Positions 1 to 7,024 of a stretch of DNA of 7,024 nt are shown here, in pieces. Every line of letters starts with the position of its first letter. Position 1 is the stretch's first letter. This DNA is from a virus. Taxonomy: Duplodnaviria; Heunggongvirae; Uroviricota; Caudoviricetes. The notes below the pieces were generated by a model. The model ran no database searches. It worked only from the letters and a program-made list of their open reading frames with translations, and was not told the DNA's origin. Location of the stretch: the IMG/VR virus record IMGVR_UViG_2547132272_000021, positions 1 to 7,024 of that record. The stretch is one strand, 5' to 3'. A program made the position numbers and the translations under genes.

Positions 1-82
1 CCATACCCACGGATTACGGGTGCTGGTCACTGCCCCTTCCAGCTTAAGCTCTCCGCTGAAATCCTCTCCCGGCGTGTTCCAG
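1..82 (-). pseudogene. Distal part of a host ORF interrupted by the insertion (exported-protein-like)
   Basis: The minus-strand frame is open from 82 to the window edge (...WNTPGEDFSGELKLEGAVTSTRNPWVW) and has no start codon of its own. It joins in frame to the 6981-7024 fragment once 83-6980 and one TCCAG copy are removed. Confidence 0.6.
78..82. repeat. Target-site duplication, left copy (TCCAG)
   Basis: TCCAG lies immediately outside the TG terminus at 83. An identical 5-mer lies immediately outside the CA terminus at 6980. The match does not extend on either side. A 5-bp duplication is the Mu transposition signature. Confidence 0.85.
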
Positions 83-87
83 TGTGA

Positions 88-109
88 TGGTTCATGATAA
101 ATACGAAAA
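88..109 (+). repeat. MuA-type transposase end-binding site, L1-like
   Basis: TGGTTCATGATAAATACGAAAA matches 18 of the 19 specified positions of TGNTTCAYTNNAARYRCGAAAR. It occupies nt 6-27 from the terminus, which is where I recall Mu L1 lying (TGTAT-TGATTCAC... in Mu, TGTGA-TGGTTCAT... here). Confidence 0.85.
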
Positions 110-215
110 GAATAATCCGGGATTAGGTTAGTAAAGACGGGAATAGATTGGAGTGAAAAATCTTTTGTATCAGCAGTTTGTTAGCGCAAAGATATGTGTT
201 GGTAAAGTTATCCCT

Positions 216-237
216 TCATTTCTGTGAAACACGAAAA
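216..237 (+). repeat. MuA-type end-binding site, L2-like (weaker first half)
   Basis: TCATTTCTGTGAAACACGAAAA matches the AARYRCGAAAR half perfectly, but the TTCAY half is degenerate, giving about 14 of 19 positions. It has the same orientation as L1. Confidence 0.6.
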
Positions 238-256
238 AATGAAAGGATTACGTGAT

Positions 257-278
257 TGTTTCACTAAAGAGGCGAAAA
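257..278 (+). repeat. MuA-type end-binding site, L3-like
   Basis: TGTTTCACTAAAGAGGCGAAAA matches 17 of 19 consensus positions and has the same orientation as L1. It starts 41 bp after the L2-like site, which resembles the L2-L3 spacing I recall for Mu attL. Confidence 0.75.
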
Positions 279-393
279 GATGGTTGATTGTATAAAGTCT
301 TCAAATATGTTCAAAACCGCTTCAATACTGCATTTGAAGCTGGTTTAAGGTGGGGCATAGGTGTCTGATAACAGAATTTACTATAAACTTTGT

Positions 394-403
394 TGATGCA
401 TCA
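394..403. promoter_or_regulatory. Perfect 10-bp palindrome TGATGCATCA (candidate operator)
   Basis: The sequence is self-complementary. It shares the TGCAT core with the 476-493 palindrome and with 505-509. Confidence 0.35.
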
Positions 404-426
404 TGAATTTAAATGTTTTTATTTAA

Positions 427-439
427 AATCAATGCGTTA
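427..439 (+). promoter_or_regulatory. IHF consensus match (WATCAANNNNTTR)
   Basis: AATCAATGCGTTA fits every specified position. It is preceded by an A/T-rich tract (405-426) and lies between the two TGCAT palindromes. Confidence 0.45.
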
Positions 440-475
440 GTGAATATTACATGATACATAGGTGTAAAGTAGCGC

Positions 476-493
476 ATTGCATATCTATGCAAT
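476..493. promoter_or_regulatory. Inverted repeat ATTGCATA-tc-TATGCAAT (candidate operator)
   Basis: It has 8-bp perfect arms and a 2-bp spacer. It lies about 25 bp upstream of the candidate promoter. Confidence 0.4.
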
Positions 494-516
494 ATGTGTC
501 GGATGTGCATAAACAC

Positions 517-545
517 TTGCCAACCAATTTTATTGTTGATAACTT
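517..545 (+). promoter_or_regulatory. Candidate sigma70 promoter of the immunity operon
   Basis: TTGCCA (517-522), a 17-bp spacer and TAACTT (540-545). Alternatives are TTGATA (536-541), 16 bp, GATAAA (558-563), or the TATAAA at 545-550. The choice between them is ambiguous. Confidence 0.35.
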
Positions 546-552
546 ATAAAAG

Positions 553-571
553 CACTCGATAAAGTCGAGTG
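553..571 (+). other. Stem-loop CACTCGA-taaag-TCGAGTG at or near the predicted 5' end of the immunity transcript
   Basis: It has a 7-bp perfect stem and a 5-nt loop, with no U-tract after it. It could be a 5' stabiliser hairpin or a palindromic operator overlapping the alternative -10. Confidence 0.3.
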
Positions 572-685
572 TCGGGCGTAGGAACCCGTGTAAGCACATG
601 GCGACACAAGACGCGCCAAGCGTCTTTTTTATTGTCGTAATATCAGCGCACCTGCATTCAGTGGCTTATGGTGCACCGTATCTAT

Positions 686-761
686 GGTGGCGCTGGTGGG
701 GCAGTCGAAAGGCTGGCCGGTTTCCTTGTGCGCCGGTATTCCTACCCCCGCCAGCGTCACC
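686..761 (+). ncRNA. P1 C4 / P4 CI-type immunity antisense RNA (about 76 nt)
   Basis: A 16-bp closing stem pairs 686-701 with 746-761 (14 Watson-Crick plus 2 G.U pairs). An inner hairpin pairs 717-720 with 733-736. Its 12-nt loop (721-732, TTTCCTTGTGCG) is complementary to 805-816 across the icd-like Shine-Dalgarno sequence. The single-stranded TTCCTAC (739-745) is complementary to GTAGGAA at 775-781 and 578-584. The size and position upstream of an Icd-like gene match the P1 C4 (77 nt) and P4 CI RNAs. Confidence 0.7.
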
Positions 762-774
762 GCCCCTTATGAGT

Positions 775-816
775 GTAGGAACTCAGGCGGTGACTCCTTA
801 AATTTGCACGAGGAGG
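775..816 (+). promoter_or_regulatory. Antisense-RNA target boxes (a2-like 775-781, b2-like 805-816) covering the icd-like RBS
   Basis: TGCACGAGGAGG (805-816) pairs with the RNA loop 721-732 through 8 Watson-Crick and 4 G.U pairs, and it contains the GAGGAGG SD (810-816). GTAGGAAC is repeated at 578-585, which is the a1-like copy. Confidence 0.6.
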
Positions 817-823
817 CTGCCAA

Positions 824-1021
824 ATGGCTACGACCCCAACCACTTTACGCTCTGAATTTACCTTTCATTTTCTGGCTGTTCGCCGTTCCGATCTGAACGA
901 CCGCCCACACCGCGAATCTATTAACGCACCTGATGAAGCAACTGCCCGTCGTATGCTGGCACGTGATTTTGTGTTGGTGTTTGCTGCCTGCATCCCTGCT
1001 AAAGGGGGTAAACATGAATAA
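824..1021 (+). CDS. icd: Host cell division inhibitor Icd-like protein (65 aa)
   Basis: The motif F.FLAVRRSDL..PH....A.DEA.ARRMLARDFVLVFAA is characteristic of Icd-like proteins of P1 and P4-type elements. A strong SD (GAGGAGG) lies 7 nt upstream of the ATG. Confidence 0.8.
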   Translation: MATTPTTLRSEFTFHFLAVRRSDLNDRPHRESINAPDEATARRMLARDFVLVFAACIPAKGGKHE

Positions 1022-1418
1022 TGTTGTCAAGTTTCCGGTGCGGAATAATAAAAAAGTTGCGAAATCGAGAGAAGATATTGCTGTAAATCTGTTTAAAGAT
1101 ATTGTTGCTGCTTTATCAAAACAGGCGCGTGACTATATTAATGATGGCGTTACCGGGATCAATGGATGCCTAGATGGTAATGGCGGATATGAAACCTTTC
1201 TATCCTCTTTGTTGCTTTATATTCGTGGCATTGACTCAAAAATTGGCCTGTTTAGTATGTCTCTTGATTCAATACATCCAATACTACATGATGCATGCAA
1301 TGACTTAACGAAAGTTATTTCCCTGACGGAGCGTTTTATTGAAAGTAGAGGCGTAATCGCAGAGGCGGCAAATGGAAAACTTACAGAAGAACAAACGCGG
1401 CAGACTTTCAAAAATTGA
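1014..1418 (+). CDS. Hypothetical protein (134 aa) in the ant/eps position of the immunity operon
   Basis: The ATG at 1014 is preceded by GGGGG (1004-1008) and overlaps the icd-like stop (ATGAATAA), which suggests translational coupling. I recognise no family for this protein. Confidence 0.6.
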   Translation: MNNVVKFPVRNNKKVAKSREDIAVNLFKDIVAALSKQARDYINDGVTGINGCLDGNGGYETFLSSLLLYIRGIDSKIGLFSMSLDSIHPILHDACNDLTKVISLTERFIESRGVIAEAANGKLTEEQTRQTFKN

Positions 1419-1734
1419 ATTGCTGCCTGAAAAGATAAAAAGGAAGCTTGATAAAATGCTTATCTCACGTAAGTATTCTCAGGCTGAAATTCTAAATATC
1501 ATAGATCAGGATATAGTAATAGCAGGGTGTTCAGAACTGGTCATATCCAAAACCGGATTGAACAGATATGCGATTAGTTTAATCAATGCTGTTTCGGTAG
1601 CCAAGAAGCATGGAGAAGTGTCTCGCCGTTATAAGCATGCCGAACTACACAGGAGACTTGATAAACTTGAATCAAAGATAGACAGATTAGGGACCAGACT
1701 TGAACGAGTGTTAGAGCTTCTCGAAAAACATTAA
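1372..1734 (+). CDS. Mu gp27 / DUF3486-like small-terminase-like DNA-binding protein (120 aa)
   Basis: The N-terminus KRGRLSKIELLPEKIKRKLDKML...SQAEIL...ISKTGLNRYA fits the R.SK+D.LP.E+R..+D..L......+..EI......+S+S.L.RY pattern of Mu-like gp27 proteins, followed by a coiled-coil C-terminus. An SD (GAGG) lies 6 nt upstream of the ATG. Confidence 0.6.
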   Translation: MENLQKNKRGRLSKIELLPEKIKRKLDKMLISRKYSQAEILNIIDQDIVIAGCSELVISKTGLNRYAISLINAVSVAKKHGEVSRRYKHAELHRRLDKLESKIDRLGTRLERVLELLEKH

Positions 1735-1741
1735 CTATCCC

Positions 1742-1767
1742 AAAGCCGCCCCGTGCGGCTTTTTTAT
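1742..1767 (+). terminator. Rho-independent terminator ending the immunity/terS-like operon
   Basis: AAAGCCGC-cccgt-GCGGCTTT gives an 8-bp stem that runs into a T6 tract, 8 nt after the stop codon. Confidence 0.85.
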
Positions 1768-1935
1768 TGTTTGGCACTCGCTGTACATATCAGCGCATAT
1801 TTCATGGAAAACGGTAAATCTATCTTCCCTAAAAATCCCGAGTAATCTCACAGCATCCAGAGCAAACGGAGATGGTTCTTTTTTGAAAAAATTATGTTTT
1901 ATCACAATCGGGGATAAACTTATTTTTGATTCCCA

Positions 1936-1970
1936 TATCCGCAATAATCGTTATCGTAACATTGCGGATA
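1936..1970. promoter_or_regulatory. 10-bp perfect inverted repeat TATCCGCAAT-N15-ATTGCGGATA (candidate regulator-binding dyad)
   Basis: It sits in the 287-bp non-coding gap (1768-2054) upstream of the Mor-like genes. It is interdigitated with CGTTATC (1949-1955) / GATAACG (1967-1973), and a tandem ATCGCGC-ATCGCGC lies at 1998-2011. Confidence 0.4.
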
Positions 1971-2054
1971 ACGTTAAGTTTGCTGCAAGCATTGGCTATC
2001 GCGCATCGCGCTCAAATGTACACAGGTATATGCAAAAGCTTAAGCGAGAAGATT

Positions 2055-2783
2055 ATGGCTAAACAAACCTTTAAAAATCTCATGTTAACGCCGCCACACA
2101 ATGATATTACAGCGATAAATAAATTCATTGTTTCTTCATGCTTTTCTCGTGATATCTGTGATGTTATGTCTTATATCGGTAAAATGGGATATGCATGTAA
2201 TTATAATGAAGTCAGTGAGCATGTGAAATTGATTGAAAAACAATTCCACGCAGTAAAACATGAACAGAGAGGCGAGTGTGAAATTGATGTTTTTTGTAAT
2301 GTCGCAGGCACCGCTCTCTTTAATGAATTTATATCTGTTTGCGGGAAACAGACGTTCTATCTTGATGCAATGAAATTTGAACCGGATTTTTTTAGTGGTG
2401 GCCCGGTTAAGCATATCCGCAAAACTGCTATTATCGCTTTATTGAGAAATGAAACAAAGATTCTTCCAGAAAGTGTGACCATGATTATGGGCGCTATTGA
2501 GGCGGCATTAAAAAAAATTGGAGTAGACCCACAAGAAGAAGTAAACAGCACGACAAAAATATTCATTGCAACAAAGGCATTTCTGGAAGTTGTAGGTGGA
2601 ATTCAGTTTTATTTACCTAAGGCCGACTCACTTAGTAGAATAATGAAAAAAGCAAATATATATGCAGATAGTTATGTTATGTCTCCTGCTGAACTAGCTA
2701 TTAAATATGGGGAGTCTGGTAAATCGATATACACAACAATAAAACATGTAGGAGCGGTTATTGGTAATCATGAGCAAAGTTAA
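2055..2783 (+). CDS. Mor/C-family transcriptional activator paralog with a roughly 130-aa N-terminal extension (242 aa; start uncertain, alternatively 2016)
   Basis: The C-terminal ~110 aa (LKKIGVDPQEE...VVGGIQFYLPKADSLSRIMKKANIY...MSPAELAIKYGESGKSIYTTIKH) aligns with Mu Mor as I recall it (LSRLGVDPAHS...LGGGQVYIPRGQALDSLIRDLRIW...VSELTTRYGVTFNTVYKAIRR). Confidence 0.65.
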   Translation: MAKQTFKNLMLTPPHNDITAINKFIVSSCFSRDICDVMSYIGKMGYACNYNEVSEHVKLIEKQFHAVKHEQRGECEIDVFCNVAGTALFNEFISVCGKQTFYLDAMKFEPDFFSGGPVKHIRKTAIIALLRNETKILPESVTMIMGAIEAALKKIGVDPQEEVNSTTKIFIATKAFLEVVGGIQFYLPKADSLSRIMKKANIYADSYVMSPAELAIKYGESGKSIYTTIKHVGAVIGNHEQS

Positions 2784-3192
2784 CATAAATAATGCACACA
2801 TATTACAAACAGGTCTGAGCCTCGGTATTGATGTAATGAGAAGTAATCTTCCTGAAGAGTTAAAACTTGTAGAACGTGCAGTTATTGAATCATGTAATGA
2901 TATTGGCTTAAATCCAGAGCATGAAATTAATGGTTTATCATTTATTGGTCGGGTCATATTAAAAATAATGGAACTACAAACCGGATGTAGTTTCATACCT
3001 GAGTATGCGATTGATTCATCCAGAATTATTTTTATTTCTAAAGTTGCTGCATATGCAGAAAAATTTGGAGCAGATAAAGCAGCCAAAGCCTACTCCATTA
3101 CAGTAGATCAGGTTACGGAAATGATGAATGAAGCAAGTATGTTTGTTTCCCAATTTGATGATTTTGGTATAGACAAGGAGAAAAGCCACTGA
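2770..3192 (+). CDS. Second Mor/C-family activator paralog (140 aa)
   Basis: LPEELKLVERAVIESCNDIGLNPEHEIN parallels LPESVTMIMGAIEAALKKIGVDPQEEVN of the upstream protein. G-C-S-F-IPE corresponds to the GG.Q.YIP motif, and the C-terminal AKAYSITVDQVTEMM is HTH-like. The gene overlaps the upstream gene by 14 nt. Confidence 0.5.
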   Translation: MSKVNINNAHILQTGLSLGIDVMRSNLPEELKLVERAVIESCNDIGLNPEHEINGLSFIGRVILKIMELQTGCSFIPEYAIDSSRIIFISKVAAYAEKFGADKAAKAYSITVDQVTEMMNEASMFVSQFDDFGIDKEKSH

Positions 3193-3246
3193 AACACGCT
3201 GTGATGTTGTTTTGTCTTATCGGCGGTGTTCTGGGTGCCCTGCACC

Positions 3247-3290
3247 TTTTTGAAGGTGCTACGGTGTTTTTGAAGGGGTTTTGAAGGGGG
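3247..3290 (+). repeat. Three direct TTTTGAAGG(G) repeats in the gap upstream of the gpI-like gene (candidate activator-dependent late promoter region)
   Basis: The copies are TTTTTGAAGG at 3247-3256, TTTTTGAAGGGG at 3267-3278 and TTTTGAAGGGGG at 3279-3290, with a degenerate TTTTGCA at 3291. The first copy lies inside the hairpin GCACCTT-tttg-AAGGTGC (3242-3259). I could not find a convincing sigma70 -35/-10 pair. Confidence 0.4.
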
Positions 3291-3300
3291 TTTTGCATCC

Positions 3301-4140
3301 ATGACAGAGGAACTAATGAATATAATCGCTTTATGCACTGATTTATCGGGTGATAAGACTCCTCCGGAATGGGTTGAGTTACTGCCAGCAGGACCGGAAA
3401 TTGAAGGGCGTGACGGAAGGAGCTGGACACTTAAAGATCCACAAAGCATTAAACAGGCGTTTTCGTGTCGCGGAATGTCACTTGTGGTCGATTATGAACA
3501 CTCTACAGAAGTGATTGCACCAAAAGGTGGCGAGGCTCCTGCCGCCGGATGGATTAATGACGTTGCTGTCCGTAATGATGGTTCTGTATGGGGAAGAGTT
3601 GAATGGACTCCACGGGCAATGAATTCCATTACATCCCGTGAATACCGATACCTTTCACCAGCGTTCCGTCATTCTCAGGATGGTGAAATACTGGAACTCG
3701 TTAGCGTGGCGTTAACGAATAAACCAAATCTGAAACTTACTGCGCTGAATACTCAGCAGACACTTAGCAAAATCGCACTGGCACTTAATATGGAGGAAGT
3801 TAATTCACTTGAAGAAGTGCTGACAGCGTTAAATAAAAGACAAGCTGAACAACATAGTCAGATTGTAAATGAATATATCGAAAAAGCTGTTTTCTGTCCG
3901 GCCCAGCGGAATATTCTTCTGTCCATGTGTTCAAGTGTTGGAGAAAATGCATTCAGGAAGTTTGCTGATATGCAGGAAAAATCGACGAGTAATTTTTTAC
4001 ACTTTGCTAGGCCTGTAAGTGTAAAAGGTAAAGAACCCCCGAGAACGCTTACTGAATCGCAACTGGCTGTTTGCCGCATTACAGGTGTAAGCGAAGAAGA
4101 CTATTTGATAGCTTTAGGAAAAGAAAATGAAAGATATTAA
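3301..4140 (+). CDS. Mu gpI-like prohead protease / scaffold (279 aa)
   Basis: PEWVELLPAGPEIEGRDGRSW...DYEHS...AGWI...VEWT..A...I....YRYLSPAF... is the Mu-like prophage I protein signature. The C-terminal third is helical and charged, which is scaffold-like. Confidence 0.85.
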   Translation: MTEELMNIIALCTDLSGDKTPPEWVELLPAGPEIEGRDGRSWTLKDPQSIKQAFSCRGMSLVVDYEHSTEVIAPKGGEAPAAGWINDVAVRNDGSVWGRVEWTPRAMNSITSREYRYLSPAFRHSQDGEILELVSVALTNKPNLKLTALNTQQTLSKIALALNMEEVNSLEEVLTALNKRQAEQHSQIVNEYIEKAVFCPAQRNILLSMCSSVGENAFRKFADMQEKSTSNFLHFARPVSVKGKEPPRTLTESQLAVCRITGVSEEDYLIALGKENERY

Positions 4141-5023
4141 TTGTGTAATTGCTGATGCTACTATCGCTTTTAACGCCAAGTTTGAATCAGGAAAAAAAGC
4201 CTACAATCCTGTACATCCAACGATTGCTTCAGAAGTAACGTCTTCATCGGCAGTTAGTGCTTATGGCTTCCTCGAAGATTTCCCGGAAATCAAAGAGTGG
4301 TTAAACGACCGACAGTTAAAATCACTGTCAACCCGTGATTATTTTCTGAAAAATAAAACGTTTGAAAGCAGCATTCAAATTAAACGTGAGGATTTTGAAG
4401 ATAATGATTATGGTAAGTATTCAATGGTTTTTGAACAGTACGGGCGCAAAGCGGCTGCATTCCCTGATAAGTTACTGTTTGAAGCTATGAAGAAAGGGCA
4501 CTTATCAGAAGGAATTGATGGGCATAACTTCTTTGCTACTGACCATCCTAATGGTGAAGGCGTTTATTCAAACCTCTATGGAAGCAATCCAGCAAAAAAT
4601 GCAGATGCAACGCCGTTATGGTACTTATTTGATGGTAGTCAGGGATTGAAACCTTTTATTTATCAGGTTCGTCGTCCAATGGCTGTAACTTCTGTTACTG
4701 ATTCCGGCGCTACCGATGTGTTTCTGAATAATCGTTTTCTGTTTGGTGTTGATGGGCGTCTTAATGTTGGATATGCAATGTGGCAATGCGCAGCGGCATC
4801 ATGGGATACGCTGAATGAAACCACATTTAATGAAGTGTACGACGGGATGTTATCCGTTAAGGGAAGTAGCGGTGAACCATTGGGAATCGTGCCTACTGTT
4901 ATTGTAGTCCCCGTATCGTTAAGAGCCGCAGCGGAAAAATTGCTGTTACGTCAGTATCTGGATAACGGGGAAGACAATCCAAATTATAAACGCGTGGAAA
5001 TTATTGTTTCACCATTTATTTGA
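4127..5023 (+). CDS. Mu gpT-like major capsid protein (298 aa)
   Basis: It is colinear with Mu T as I recall it, over segments such as YGFLEDFPEIKEWLNDRQ, FESSIQIKREDFEDN, DGHNFFATDHP, LKPFIYQ, NVGYAMWQ, VVPVSLR and NGEDNPNY. An AGGA SD lies 7 nt upstream, and the gene overlaps the gpI-like gene by 14 nt. Confidence 0.9.
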   Translation: MKDINCVIADATIAFNAKFESGKKAYNPVHPTIASEVTSSSAVSAYGFLEDFPEIKEWLNDRQLKSLSTRDYFLKNKTFESSIQIKREDFEDNDYGKYSMVFEQYGRKAAAFPDKLLFEAMKKGHLSEGIDGHNFFATDHPNGEGVYSNLYGSNPAKNADATPLWYLFDGSQGLKPFIYQVRRPMAVTSVTDSGATDVFLNNRFLFGVDGRLNVGYAMWQCAAASWDTLNETTFNEVYDGMLSVKGSSGEPLGIVPTVIVVPVSLRAAAEKLLLRQYLDNGEDNPNYKRVEIIVSPFI

Positions 5024-5029
5024 TAATTC

Positions 5030-5054
5030 GGAGGGGATTTCCCCTCCTGTTTTT
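5030..5054 (+). terminator. Rho-independent terminator/attenuator directly after the capsid gene
   Basis: GGAGGGG-attt-CCCCTCC gives a 7-bp GC-rich stem followed by TGTTTTT, 6 nt after the capsid stop codon. Confidence 0.75.
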
Positions 5055-5066
5055 ATGGGGAATATA

Positions 5067-6854
5067 ATGAGTAATAAGTTAAGCACGGAAATACTGATAA
5101 ATCTTACGGGAAATCTTACCGCTAAAGCACGACAGTACGGCGCAAATATGTCGCAGTTCGCCCGTAACCATCAGAAGGCAATGCGACTGGTCAAGGCCAC
5201 AACTGAATCCGCCACGCGTGGCCTTGATATGCTGGGTAATCGTTACACAGCGATGATTGCAGGTTTTGCAGGTAGCGCCATGATGCGTGAGTTTGCACAG
5301 GTTGATCGCCGGATGACCCGTATTGGTATTGCCGCAGAAAAGACGCGCGACGAAATGGCACAGATGCTGAATGGTATTCAGGACACCGCCATCAAATTTA
5401 AGGTTGATGACAGTGAACTGATAAGCGCGGTGGAAAAAGTTGGCACAATAACAGGCGAGATTGAGTTTGGCATCAAGAATAAGGATGTTATGGCGGCCTC
5501 CATCGCGGCTTCAGGAAGTGAAGGCGAGTTCATTGGCTCGCTGTTTTCCCTGTTTACGAAGTTTGGCATTAAGAATGAAGACGACTCACTGAAGGCCATG
5601 GACACCCTGAACCTGCTGGGGAAGGAAGGTGCCTATGAATTGAAAGACTTTGCAGAAAAATCCACCCGCGGGATGTCGCTGTATGCCGCTGCAGGTGGAC
5701 GGGGCGTAAAGGGTGTCAAGGAGTTTGGTGTTGTAATGGAATCTGCTGTGGATGCCACCGGGAACCGTGATACAGCAGCCACAACGGTGGAAAATTTCAT
5801 AAAAGATTTGCAGAACCCGAAAGTCGTCAAAACGCTTAAGCATAATGGCATTAACGTATTCGATAGCGAAGGCCATATGCGTTCACTGCCCGTTCTTCTT
5901 CAGGAGATTGCCACCCGCTCGGGAAGCAAAGGCTCGGAAATACAATCCAAACGACTGGATGAAGCCGGATTTCTTGATGACGCAAAAATGTTAATCAAAT
6001 CGGTAACGTCCGGTAAAGGCGCAGAAAACCTGCAACGCTATATGAAAGTCGTCGGTGATGGAAAAGGCATCATGAAGGATGCCGCATATGCCGCACAGGA
6101 CTTTACGTCTTCCATGCAGGCGCTGGAAACCAGCTGGAAAAAATTCTCTCATAACCAACTGGCAAAACCTGTTCAGGAACTGGCTGATGCCATTAACAGT
6201 GTCGACCAGAACACTGTCCAGAACTGGCTACAGGTTGCCAAATACATGGCGATTGCTGTGGGCGGCATTATCGCCGTGCGTAAGACGTACAAGCTCGGTA
6301 AAACCATCCACGACATCATGAATCCCAAAGAGAAAGGCAAAGGGATACCCGGCAGTATTACGGATGTTTTCGGTTCTGGCGTGATGCCAGTGTATGTGGT
6401 CAATATGGGCAGCGGTGGGATGAATGGTAATACCAGTGGTTTGCCGGATGCGCCGGATTCATCACGCAATCCCCGTGGACCAAAGACGCCAACACTGGTT
6501 ACACCACAAACGGTATCAGGATTTAATCTCCTTGACATGGCGCTATCTGCTTTCCCCAAAAATAAAGAGGAAGCTGACGCGTTAATCGCACGGGTTCAGG
6601 AAAACAACAACCGCCCGACGGTATGGACGGATATTAAGAACTGGTTTAACTCTCTGGAGAAAAAGAACATCGCCGCTCCATCTCCGTGGGATGTCCTGCA
6701 ATCCACACAGAACGCGCCATTCGTACCACAGCAATTGCAGGGAGAAATCCGTGTGGTGGTGGAAGGTGATGCACGCGTGAAAAGCGTCAGAGTGGATCAA
6801 CCTGGCGTCAGACTTAGTGCTCAGGCAGGGGTTACCAGTGTAGAACAAAGTTAA
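5067..6854 (+). CDS. Tail tape-measure-like protein (TP901/PhageMin_Tail-type core; 595 aa)
   Basis: The central region (FAQVDRRMTRIGIAAEKTRDEM...AASIAASGSEGEFIGSLFSLFTKFGI...NLLGKEGAYELKDFA...GINVFDSEGHMRSLPVLLQEIA) looks like tape-measure core repeats. The C-terminal part has a hydrophobic segment (YMAIAVGGIIAV) and a Gly-rich stretch. I chose the ATG at 5067 because GGGGA lies 6 nt upstream, whereas the TTG at 5004 would overlap the capsid gene and the terminator. Confidence 0.7.
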   Translation: MSNKLSTEILINLTGNLTAKARQYGANMSQFARNHQKAMRLVKATTESATRGLDMLGNRYTAMIAGFAGSAMMREFAQVDRRMTRIGIAAEKTRDEMAQMLNGIQDTAIKFKVDDSELISAVEKVGTITGEIEFGIKNKDVMAASIAASGSEGEFIGSLFSLFTKFGIKNEDDSLKAMDTLNLLGKEGAYELKDFAEKSTRGMSLYAAAGGRGVKGVKEFGVVMESAVDATGNRDTAATTVENFIKDLQNPKVVKTLKHNGINVFDSEGHMRSLPVLLQEIATRSGSKGSEIQSKRLDEAGFLDDAKMLIKSVTSGKGAENLQRYMKVVGDGKGIMKDAAYAAQDFTSSMQALETSWKKFSHNQLAKPVQELADAINSVDQNTVQNWLQVAKYMAIAVGGIIAVRKTYKLGKTIHDIMNPKEKGKGIPGSITDVFGSGVMPVYVVNMGSGGMNGNTSGLPDAPDSSRNPRGPKTPTLVTPQTVSGFNLLDMALSAFPKNKEEADALIARVQENNNRPTVWTDIKNWFNSLEKKNIAAPSPWDVLQSTQNAPFVPQQLQGEIRVVVEGDARVKSVRVDQPGVRLSAQAGVTSVEQS

Positions 6855-6856
6855 AT

Positions 6857-6887
6857 ATATGCTGTATATCACAAAATAGCAGCATAT
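6857..6887. repeat. Inverted repeat ATATGCTG-N15-CAGCATAT after the last gene, containing a possible degenerate third MuA-type site
   Basis: It has 8-bp perfect arms. The loop and right arm (6865-6886, TATATCACAAAATAGCAGCATA) share TCACAAAA with the R1/R2-like sites but match only about 10 of 19 consensus positions. The orientation is opposite to R1/R2. Confidence 0.25.
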
Positions 6888-6931
6888 TAATTCAATGCGT
6901 CCGATTTTTTATTCGGTGGTGTTTTGTTTTT

Positions 6932-6953
6932 TTTTCGCGCTTTTTGTGAGATG
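6932..6953 (-). repeat. MuA-type end-binding site, R2-like
   Basis: The minus strand reads CATCTCACAAAAAGCGCGAAAA, about 15 of 19 consensus positions. It directly abuts the R1-like site in the same orientation. The two 22-mers are 20/22 identical. Confidence 0.75.
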
Positions 6954-6975
6954 CTTTCGCGCTTTTTGTGAAACG
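6954..6975 (-). repeat. MuA-type end-binding site, R1-like
   Basis: The minus strand reads CGTTTCACAAAAAGCGCGAAAG, 17 of 19 consensus positions. It occupies nt 6-27 from the CA terminus, exactly mirroring the L1-like site at the other end. Confidence 0.85.
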
Positions 6976-6980
6976 CCTCA

Positions 6981-6985
6981 TCCAG
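6981..6985. repeat. Target-site duplication, right copy (TCCAG)
   Basis: It is identical to 78-82 and directly abuts the CA-3' terminus. Confidence 0.85.
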
Positions 6986-7024
6986 GCCAGTACACAGGAA
7001 GGCAGGAGGCTGGCAGCAAACAGA
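6981..7024 (-). pseudogene. Proximal part of the interrupted host ORF (signal-peptide-like segment)
   Basis: The minus-strand frame reads LFAASLLPSCVLAW. In the present state it runs on into the element end (MRRFTKSAKASHKKREKKTKHHRIKNRTH) and stops at the TGA complementary to 6892-6894. In the reconstructed empty site it continues as NTPGEDFSGELKLEG... Confidence 0.6.

Follow-up and report, generated by a model that had tools for sequence, protein, structure and literature searches.

The window analyzed in this study is a 7,024-nucleotide stretch of DNA from a tailed virus (Caudoviricetes; positions 1 to 7,024 of IMG/VR record IMGVR_UViG_2547132272_000021). It contains a 6.9-kb element with ends like those of phage Mu that carries two head genes, one for a head maturation protease of the gpI type, to which a shortened scaffold is fused, and the other for a gpT-type major capsid protein. 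We classify this element as a phage satellite whose mode of mobility is new and whose capsid autonomy, also of a new form, is partial. Similar elements form a family, and those found in Escherichia coli share their genomes with Mu-like prophages, hereafter called helpers. We give roughly even chances to the proposal that members of this Mu satellite family assemble heads of their own, probably smaller ones, on helper portals. Most of our doubt concerns the size of these heads, and little concerns the satellite nature of the elements.

An earlier sequence-only reading of the window had proposed that the gpI-like and gpT-like genes, present without a portal gene, redirect capsid size to suit a small genome. 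This interpretation is partly supported by the analyses described below. The features on which the argument is built are as follows, with coordinates given for the window.

78..82, no strand: left copy of the target-site duplication, TCCAG, identical to the pentamer at 6981-6985
83..6980, + strand: whole non-autonomous Mu-type element (satellite), 6,898 bp, with TG...CA termini and with different host genes at its flanks in different genomes
83..279, + strand: left end with three MuA-type sites (L1 at 83-110, L2 at 223-240, L3 at 256-279)
3316..4140, + strand: head maturation protease of the gpI type with a shortened scaffold fused to it, 274 residues; the reading frame is open from 3301
4127..5023, + strand: gpT-type major capsid protein, 298 residues (WP_000651911.1); its start overlaps the gpI stop by 14 nucleotides
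6931..6980, + strand: right end with two tandem MuA-type sites (R2 at 6931-6953, R1 at 6954-6980), like R1 and R2 of Mu
6981..6985, no strand: right copy of the target-site duplication, TCCAG, matching 78..82

The gpI-gpT head gene pair

Profile searches bear out the earlier identification of both genes. The open reading frame (ORF) at 3301-4140 matches PF10123 Mu-like_Pro (E=8e-49) and the head maturation protease family phrog_328 (E=2e-62). Likewise, gpT matches PF10124 Mu-like_gpT over its full length (positions 5-289 of 289; E=6e-89), phrog_371 (E=2e-93), and the solved gpT-family capsid protein PDB 8rkc (E=1e-63). The sequence-only reading had also noted a head module without a portal in this 6.9-kb element, and we agree that no ORF in the window qualifies as one. 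Based on the ORF list and on Pfam and PHROG searches, none of the window ORFs encodes a portal, large terminase, connector, head-completion, sheath, tube, or baseplate protein. The single ORF of more than 300 residues (5067-6854) encodes a tape-measure protein.

Translation of gpI probably begins at the ATG at 3316. This start is favored because it has a GAGGA Shine-Dalgarno sequence, RefSeq uses it for the E. coli copies, and the orthologue N termini align with it. An AlphaFold2 model of the protein, with a pLDDT (predicted local distance difference test) score of 84, has a compact protease domain (residues 1-134), helices over residues 147-226, and, beyond a disordered linker, a C-terminal helix-turn-helix (247-266). 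The top fold matches of this model are T4 gp21 and herpesvirus capsid proteases, although these matches are weak (E~0.1). Residues H62 and S114 are invariant in a 50-sequence alignment and are likely the catalytic pair.

In alignments with Mu and the E. coli helper, the helical part of the satellite scaffold lacks about 45-50 residues. When scaffold length is measured from a conserved LTNKP motif to the C terminus, for those homologues among the 120 best matches in which the motif was found, the satellite clade has 128-144 residues (n=20), whereas 90 of 94 other homologues have 177-225. The remaining four fall outside this range and appear truncated. The window protein has a scaffold about 70 residues shorter than that of Mu and about 45 residues shorter than that of the E. 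coli helper. Retained in the satellites are the C-terminal motif L-T/S-x-x-Q-x-A-V-C-R-x-x-G-V-S-E-x-x-Y-L and the helix-turn-helix.

Mu also makes a separate scaffold product, gpZ, from an internal start. The corresponding Shine-Dalgarno sequence and ATG are annotated in Mu (NC_000929) and present in the helper, but they are not conserved in the satellites, and we found no conserved Shine-Dalgarno sequence with a start codon for a gpZ-like product within satellite gpI. Thus, judging from these sequences, a separate gpZ seems to be absent. As a member of PF10123, the satellite protein therefore has the protease domain with its His and Ser residues, and it differs from the phage members in scaffold length (about 177-225 residues in phages) and in the apparent absence of gpZ.

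The satellite gpT proteins are colinear with phage gpT in alignments, and they are monophyletic in a neighbor-joining tree in which the protein of the E. coli helper is the sister branch and those of Mu and other phages lie outside. Among 50,697 phage records, the closest phage gpT is 43.5% identical to that of the window. Relatives of the window protein fall into one block at 61-100% identity and a second at 40-45%, and every examined relative with at least 40% identity sits in a small satellite-type island. The first true phage among the gpT contexts sampled (P0021-P0027 left out) appears at 39% identity, where gpT has 353 residues and gpI has 389. Satellite and helper proteins are 43% identical for gpT and 34% identical for gpI, and by this measure the satellite pair is not copied from the helper. 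Comparison of the pair with helper versions, which had been suggested as a check on the initial proposal, therefore yields a distinct pair in which gpT forms a clade of its own.

Mobility, co-occurrence with a helper, and family

The left end of the element can be aligned with those of Mu and the co-resident helper, all of which share the order and orientation of the MuA-type sites. At the right end, alignment places CTTTCGCGCTTTTTGTGAAACGCCTCA in the satellite against TTTTCGCGTTTTTCGTGCGCCGCTTCA in Mu and the helper. No helper ends were matched in blastn searches with the satellite ends, and the likeness is limited to short MuA-type sites that are visible only by alignment. A further motif, CCGGGATTAG..., lies at about 113-150 in the satellite left end, at a position that we take to be that of the Mu pac site. 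It follows the first transposase site and has the general form CCGGGA(T/A)(T/A)AG...CGGGA(T/A), which recurs in other satellite loci (L009 at about 5260-5300, L013, L018, and L022) and in Mu. This motif is kept in satellites whose terminal repeats otherwise differ.

No transposase domain was detected in any ORF of the window by Pfam and PHROG profile searches, and the same searches revealed no integrase. Given the Mu-type ends, the target-site duplications, and the lack of a transposase, the element is a non-autonomous Mu-type transposable element. Its genes form one long series on the + strand. The G+C content is about 36-44% through gpT and 47-51% within the tape-measure gene, a step that parallels the uneven similarity to the prophages, which is high for the tape measure and low for gpI and gpT.

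Evidence for recent movement comes from multiple copies. A megablast search of 5,426 complete E. coli genomes recovered the window nearly in full from eight genomes, and a ninth has a copy that IS1 has truncated. Each of these copies lies at a distinct chromosomal site and interrupts a distinct gene, and five of the nine carrier genomes have two copies of the element. Other copies are flanked by different 5-bp duplications, namely TCCAC (E. coli, L002), GTGGT (Citrobacter), and TTCAG (Photobacterium). In the truncated copy (STEC388; L003, 12999-13696), IS1 just past gpT removes the tape-measure gene and the right end. A copy in Yersinia (L008, 10035-11471) has an insertion sequence (IS) with a DDE transposase between gpT and the tape-measure gene.

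Stand-alone contigs of the element were also found. A draft contig at NCBI (L029; JAAPFD010000046.1) has 6,899 nucleotides and equals the element to within 2 nucleotides, and an IMG/VR contig (L022; 6,691 nucleotides) begins and terminates at the element termini. Further Logan contigs of 6.3-7.0 kb have the size of the element, although these were matched by size only or carry short flanks. SRR25820371 and GCA_030002875.1 are examples of public data in which the element forms a contig by itself. Assemblers yield such contigs when an element is multi-copy or has heterogeneous flanks, as is implied for those samples. Along with the spread over four orders described below, the stand-alone contigs are indirect signs of helper-dependent induction, packaging, and transfer.

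Without a transposase, establishment in a new cell should require a resident or co-infecting helper. This expectation fits the distribution of the element in E. coli. A Mu-like prophage, as probed by its tape-measure gene and gene N, is present in 47 of the 5,426 complete genomes, and all nine satellite carriers are among them (Fisher p=1e-19, a value that is inflated by clonal relatedness, as there are about three independent lineages). In one such prophage (RIVM_C036569), the annotation is complete from MuA and MuB through Com and Mom, and a single tail-fiber gene is flagged as partial. Another (UMNF18) has canonical Mu ends and the duplication GGGAA. The element thus lacks genes needed to make a particle, and the co-occurring helper supplies them, as is characteristic of satellites.

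The family shares a gene order that consists of a Gp27-N-like protein (about 100-120 residues), a Mor activator, a protein of about 120-140 residues, gpI (270-279), gpT (296-305), and a tape-measure protein (411-651). Islands with this order occur in Klebsiella variicola, Yersinia enterocolitica, Citrobacter freundii (three insertion sites), Photobacterium damselae, Shewanella, Aeromonas, and metagenome contigs. The elements measure 6.3-7.4 kb, and none has cargo genes. A more reduced island in a Vibrio metagenome-assembled genome (L005, about 7300-11100, between rlmM and xni) has a 126-residue ORF, gpI of 301 residues, gpT of 300 residues, and two Mor-family genes. No tape-measure gene is present in this island and no Mu-type ends were identified there, although its gpT falls in the satellite clade. 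Overall, the family is spread across at least four orders of Gammaproteobacteria. A scan of one genome per species found only one distant locus, and thus the element is rare in representative genomes.

The genes gpI, gpT, and the tape-measure gene are under purifying selection. The ORFs for gpI and gpT are intact at every locus examined, representing eight genera. Between genera, the proportion of synonymous differences is saturated (pS >0.7), and the proportion of nonsynonymous differences (pN) for gpT is 0.11-0.19. For the closest pair, the nonsynonymous-to-synonymous ratio (omega) is 0.16 for gpT, 0.18 for gpI, and 0.13 for the tape measure.

Proposed head assembly, its alternatives, and known systems

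Several steps would be needed for an element of this kind to spread. Helper MuA and MuB would act on the Mu-type ends of the satellite to integrate it and to copy it by replicative transposition. Helper terminase and portal would then package the satellite by headful from its left end, and the Gp27-N-like protein of the satellite may assist or redirect this packaging. Satellite gpI and gpT might assemble a shell around the helper portal, and the resulting small head would fit the 6.9-kb element plus a few kilobases of flanking host DNA while excluding the helper genome of ~37 kb. Finally, helper tails would join the satellite heads. From the gene sequences we infer helper-portal assembly, a smaller capsid with gpT present in the particles, a lower triangulation (T) number, and exclusion of the helper genome.

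The shortened scaffold suggests small heads on a borrowed portal. A scaffold lacking about 50 residues, together with the seeming absence of gpZ, points to a procapsid smaller than T=7, perhaps T=3 or T=4. About 47 helical residues would span about 7 nm, which is close to the amount by which Mu-sized T=7 and T=4 shells differ in radius. Scaling of capacity as T^1.5 from 39 kb would give about 17 kb for T=4, about 11 kb for T=3, and about 2 kb for T=1. The P4/P2 and SaPI/80alpha systems suggest a practical value for T=4 nearer 13 kb (SaPI, Staphylococcus aureus pathogenicity island).

Element size offers a second line of evidence. Lineages whose gpT proteins are about 44% identical have elements of the same narrow, cargo-free size, which fits a tight packaging limit, whereas a 39-kb headful imposes none. 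Combined with the loss of about 45-50 scaffold residues, the family-wide range of 6.3-7.4 kb is new evidence favoring small heads that was not part of the initial proposal. Another means of filling a large head appears to be closed to this element. The satellites called PICMIs (phage-inducible chromosomal minimalist islands) are packaged as concatemers into large heads. Mu-type replication yields no concatemers, and therefore the PICMI route is not available.

The more specific version of this proposal is one in which widespread Gammaproteobacteria satellites without a recombinase use the helper Mu transposase for integration and replication, and encode only a capsid protein and a truncated protease-scaffold that form T=3 or T=4 heads on the helper portal, with a headful of about 8-14 kb. 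We hold this version with somewhat less than even confidence.

A number of observations weigh against small heads on helper portals. Scaffold length predicts T-number only loosely, and alignment with phage gpT reveals no satellite-specific insertion or deletion in the capsid protein. It is assumed that a capsid protein with 43% identity to that of the helper fits the helper portal. The C-terminal motif of the satellite scaffold is like that of the helper, and thus the scaffold could act on the helper capsid protein instead. To our knowledge, a headful of 8-14 kb would be at or below the smallest for tailed particles. In addition, the tape-measure gene is kept throughout the family members with Mu ends, and our favored model does not explain its role. 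The clonal relatedness noted above also tempers the co-occurrence statistic.

Some of these same points would be expected if the satellite pair builds helper-sized (T=7) heads, alone or with helper subunits, so that each particle carries the 6.9-kb element plus about 32 kb of host DNA. The benefit of encoding a shell would then be independence from the helper capsid supply or escape from defenses that target the capsid. The full-length, colinear gpT and the similarity of helper and satellite scaffold C termini agree with this explanation, no sequence feature fixes the T-number, and artificial mini-Mu is packaged in normal heads with long host flanks. However, the family-wide loss of about 50 scaffold residues would be left unexplained, as would the narrow 6.3-7.4-kb cargo-free size, since a 39-kb headful sets no limit on element size. 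We therefore regard helper-sized heads as unlikely. Less likely again is the possibility that the pair serves mainly in interference or defense by co-assembling with helper head proteins and poisoning them or diverting them to dead-end small shells, with transfer of the element being incidental. Capsid redirection by known satellites does lower helper yield (PMC12409344), satellite and helper have the scaffold C-terminal motif in common, and the Gp27-N-like fragment could also block helper packaging. Yet the satellites retain complete Mu-type ends and a pac-like region. Moreover, their spread over at least four orders and the match between E. coli tape-measure alleles and Mu-like prophages, with another Pfam family in other lineages, argue for horizontal transfer as particles. 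Interference is also compatible with self-transfer and is thus partly a sub-case of the proposal that the satellites build small heads of their own.

The sequence-only reading had named inactive remnants in most copies as an outcome that would count against it, and this outcome was not observed. A decaying deletion derivative of a Mu-like prophage, whose head genes have no present function, is a very improbable source for these elements. All structural genes do have Mu homologues and follow the Mu order (I, T, ..., tape measure), and the IS1-truncated E. coli copy and the Yersinia copy with an IS are what decay might produce. Against this stand the intact ORFs and the strong purifying selection described above, an identical minimal gene set in eight genera, and multiple recent insertions with target duplications. 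Furthermore, the regulatory region is not Mu-like, and no sequenced phage has a close gpT.

Among known systems, the laboratory mini-Mu and Mud derivatives resemble the satellite in mobility. They are artificial, with Mu ends and no transposase or capsid genes, and they are carried in full-size heads with long host flanks. In both cases the ends would be served by MuA and MuB in trans and the DNA packaged by a helper headful from the left end (mini-Muduction), as we propose for the satellite. The satellite differs in that its family is natural and conserved and encodes a capsid protein, protease/scaffold, tape measure, and Mor-type activator of its own, together with a non-Mu immunity region. 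The head genes themselves resemble I/Z and T of Mu in their Pfam families, their order, their overlapping or adjacent arrangement, the hairpin after T, and the tri-repeat upstream of I (see below). However, satellite gpT and gpI are only 35% and 25% identical to the Mu proteins, and the long 5' leader that carries the promoter P_I in Mu is absent from the satellite.

Phage P4, like the satellite, is an enterobacterial satellite of a temperate myophage, and the C4/isrK/Icd-type immunity region of our element resembles the P4/P1 type. P4 makes the external scaffold Sid to build T=4 heads from P2 gpN, replicates as a plasmid, and integrates site-specifically. Head-size reduction is known for P4 and hypothesized for the satellite, but P4 uses the capsid protein of its helper whereas the satellite encodes its own. 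Sid, Psu, delta, alpha primase, and integrase had no Pfam or PHROG match among the window ORFs.

SaPIbov5 encodes Ccm, a satellite-encoded homologue of the capsid protein. By analogy, Ccm and the SaPI proteins CpmB and Rcm appear to be the nearest functional analogues of the satellite pair. CpmB and Rcm are short mimics of the internal scaffold, and the small heads formed with them exclude the helper genome (PMC12409344). All three proteins redirect the helper capsid protein, whereas the satellite encodes a complete capsid protein and protease-scaffold without sequence relationship to them. Moreover, small heads are known for SaPIs, while for the satellite they are proposed. The differences from P4 Sid and from the phage-inducible chromosomal islands that form capsids (cf-PICIs) that were drawn in the sequence-only reading hold, but Ccm and CpmB/Rcm had been left out of that comparison.

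The cf-PICIs and the Streptomyces satellites MulchRoom and MiniFlayer have their own major capsid protein and maturation protease and borrow tails, as we propose for the satellite. They also encode a portal, head-tail connectors, TerL, TerS, and HNH proteins (PMC10690885; PMC12409344). In contrast, the satellite has only the capsid protein, the protease/scaffold, and a 120-residue TerS-like N-terminal fragment, and thus its head autonomy is partial. Likewise, cf-PICIs and MulchRoom use an integrase, whereas the satellite has none and instead has Mu-type ends and varied insertion sites.

In known satellites, either one or two small factors remodel the helper capsid protein, or the satellite brings an entire module for the head and its packaging. 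If our proposal is true, the present family would have an intermediate design, with shell and scaffold only on a borrowed portal, and would represent a third route to capsid piracy. It would also be a natural satellite that depends on a helper transposase for both integration and replication. We found no description of a Mu-type satellite of this kind in the full-text literature, although most subscription journals lay outside the search and a prior description is possible. With about 50 residues cleanly deleted inside a single protein family, the satellites offer a natural experiment on how scaffold length relates to the T-number of HK97-fold capsids. If small heads are indeed made, they would show how far a headful can shrink and still be served by a Mu-type portal and terminase. 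If the heads are instead full-sized, then the elements would be natural engines of host-gene transduction. In either case, insertion of these elements disrupts genes of their hosts, which include pathogenic E. coli, Klebsiella, Citrobacter, and Yersinia. Elements of 7 kb such as these may escape current annotation tools that look for integrases or for MuA and MuB, or be labeled by them as prophage fragments.

Other genes and regulatory sequences

The remaining features of the element are listed below.

552..1021, + strand: immunity-like region with isrK RNA (552-630), C4 antisense RNA (680-767), and an Icd-like ORF (824-1021)
1372..1734, + strand: Gp27-N-like protein, 120 residues (PF11985, E=2e-9; phrog_426, E=9e-14), resembling the N-terminal domain of small terminases
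2055..2783, + strand: Mor/C-family activator (PF08765, E=4e-8 on residues 138-241; RefSeq annotation, Mor family)
2770..3192, + strand: conserved 140-residue protein directly upstream of gpI, with homologues solely in enterobacterial family members
3247..3296, + strand: tri-repeat (TTTTTGAAGG, TTTTTGAAGGGG, TTTTGAAGGGGG), with three exact matches to TTTTGAAGG versus 0.10 expected by chance
5030..5054, + strand: hairpin and T-run after gpT, found by a terminator scan; its position is conserved in satellites and Mu
5067..6854, + strand: tail tape-measure protein, 595 residues (PF10145; phrog_973, E=8e-107)

The tape-measure protein is a mosaic. Overall, it is 87% identical to that of a Mu-like prophage type (L004) and 47% identical to that of the co-resident helper. 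Its N-terminal ~60 residues, a middle block, and the C terminus are 83-95% identical to the co-resident helper. Residues from about 60 to 370 are about 20% identical to the resident helper versus 65-98% (about 85%) to the L004 type. A central domain that is unlike the allele of the resident helper would point to a further requirement at DNA delivery. The Pfam family of the tape measure varies by lineage (PF10145 or PF20155) and the layout is constant, which suggests exchange with local helpers.

Over residues 1-71 of helper Gp27 (DUF3486, small-terminase-like), the Gp27-N-like protein shows 45% identity; the rest of it no longer resembles Gp27 and is predicted to form a helical tail. Based on this partial match, it is a candidate packaging redirector or inhibitor. 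In enterobacterial members, the Mor domain carries an N-terminal extension of about 135 residues with no detectable family; members from Vibrio, Shewanella, and Aeromonas have a Mor protein of normal size, with a separate small ORF before it.

The 140-residue protein has no Pfam or PHROG match, and its AlphaFold2 model, which is of poor quality (pLDDT 65), is helical with no fold match. In Photobacterium, Shewanella, and Aeromonas, the ORF before gpI (L016, 7745-8113; L026, 8700-9071; L027, 8764-9129) is unrelated to this protein. This ORF has matches to phrog_15948 (E down to 1e-21) and weak ones to the tail assembly chaperone family phrog_508 (E=0.003-0.17), and its product may be a partner of the tape measure.

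Near the left end, isrK and the C4 antisense RNA score above the Rfam gathering score, and the region also has matches to phrog_6928 and phrog_1743 and RefSeq annotations as Ash and Icd-like proteins. By these similarities, the segment at 552-1021 corresponds to a P1/P4-type immunity module within a Mu-type element. The left regulatory module varies among genera, and that of Citrobacter, for example, has a HicB-like gene.

The hairpin after gpT had been described in the sequence-only reading as a strong terminator that follows the head genes. A hairpin with a T-run is indeed present, consisting of a 7-bp G+C-rich stem-loop at 5030-5047 (-15 kcal/mol) followed by TGTTTTTATGG. This hairpin is no more stable than shuffles of its own 41 nucleotides (z=-1). 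Because the shuffle statistic is not significant, its weight rests on conserved position, as a hairpin and T-run are found directly 3' of the gpT stop in all satellites examined and in Mu, with a different sequence each time. The tape-measure gene begins 20 nucleotides past the hairpin, so the head genes are not a terminal module. For this reason, the hairpin is a probable attenuator, or an element that stabilizes RNA or forms an RNA end, inherited from the Mu layout rather than marking the end of a module. In this role it would probably set a high ratio of capsid protein to tape-measure expression. No Rfam family was detected within 3301-5054.

The tri-repeat ends 20 nucleotides 5' of the gpI start in the window. 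Its consensus is TTTAAAC, about 11 nucleotides, GATTTAAAC, 3 nucleotides, and TTTTAAAC. Its end lies 15-30 nucleotides before gpI in 10 of 10 Mu-end satellite elements examined and not in the Vibrio island. The repeat also occurs upstream of gpI in Mu (NC_000929, 17891-17935; L020) and in helpers L004 and L012, and the variant unit TTTTGAAGG is common to the E. coli satellite and its helper type. We considered whether the repeat is the C-dependent late promoter P_I and rejected this assignment, since the published P_I fragment (Mu 17965-18050) lies downstream of the repeat (PMC4461284, Table 1). Counted rightward from the annotated cut in the strong gyrase site, the Mu repeat lies at 12-55 nucleotides. 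As a fraction of element length, the satellite tri-repeat is located at 46%, and the gyrase site of Mu is located at 49%.

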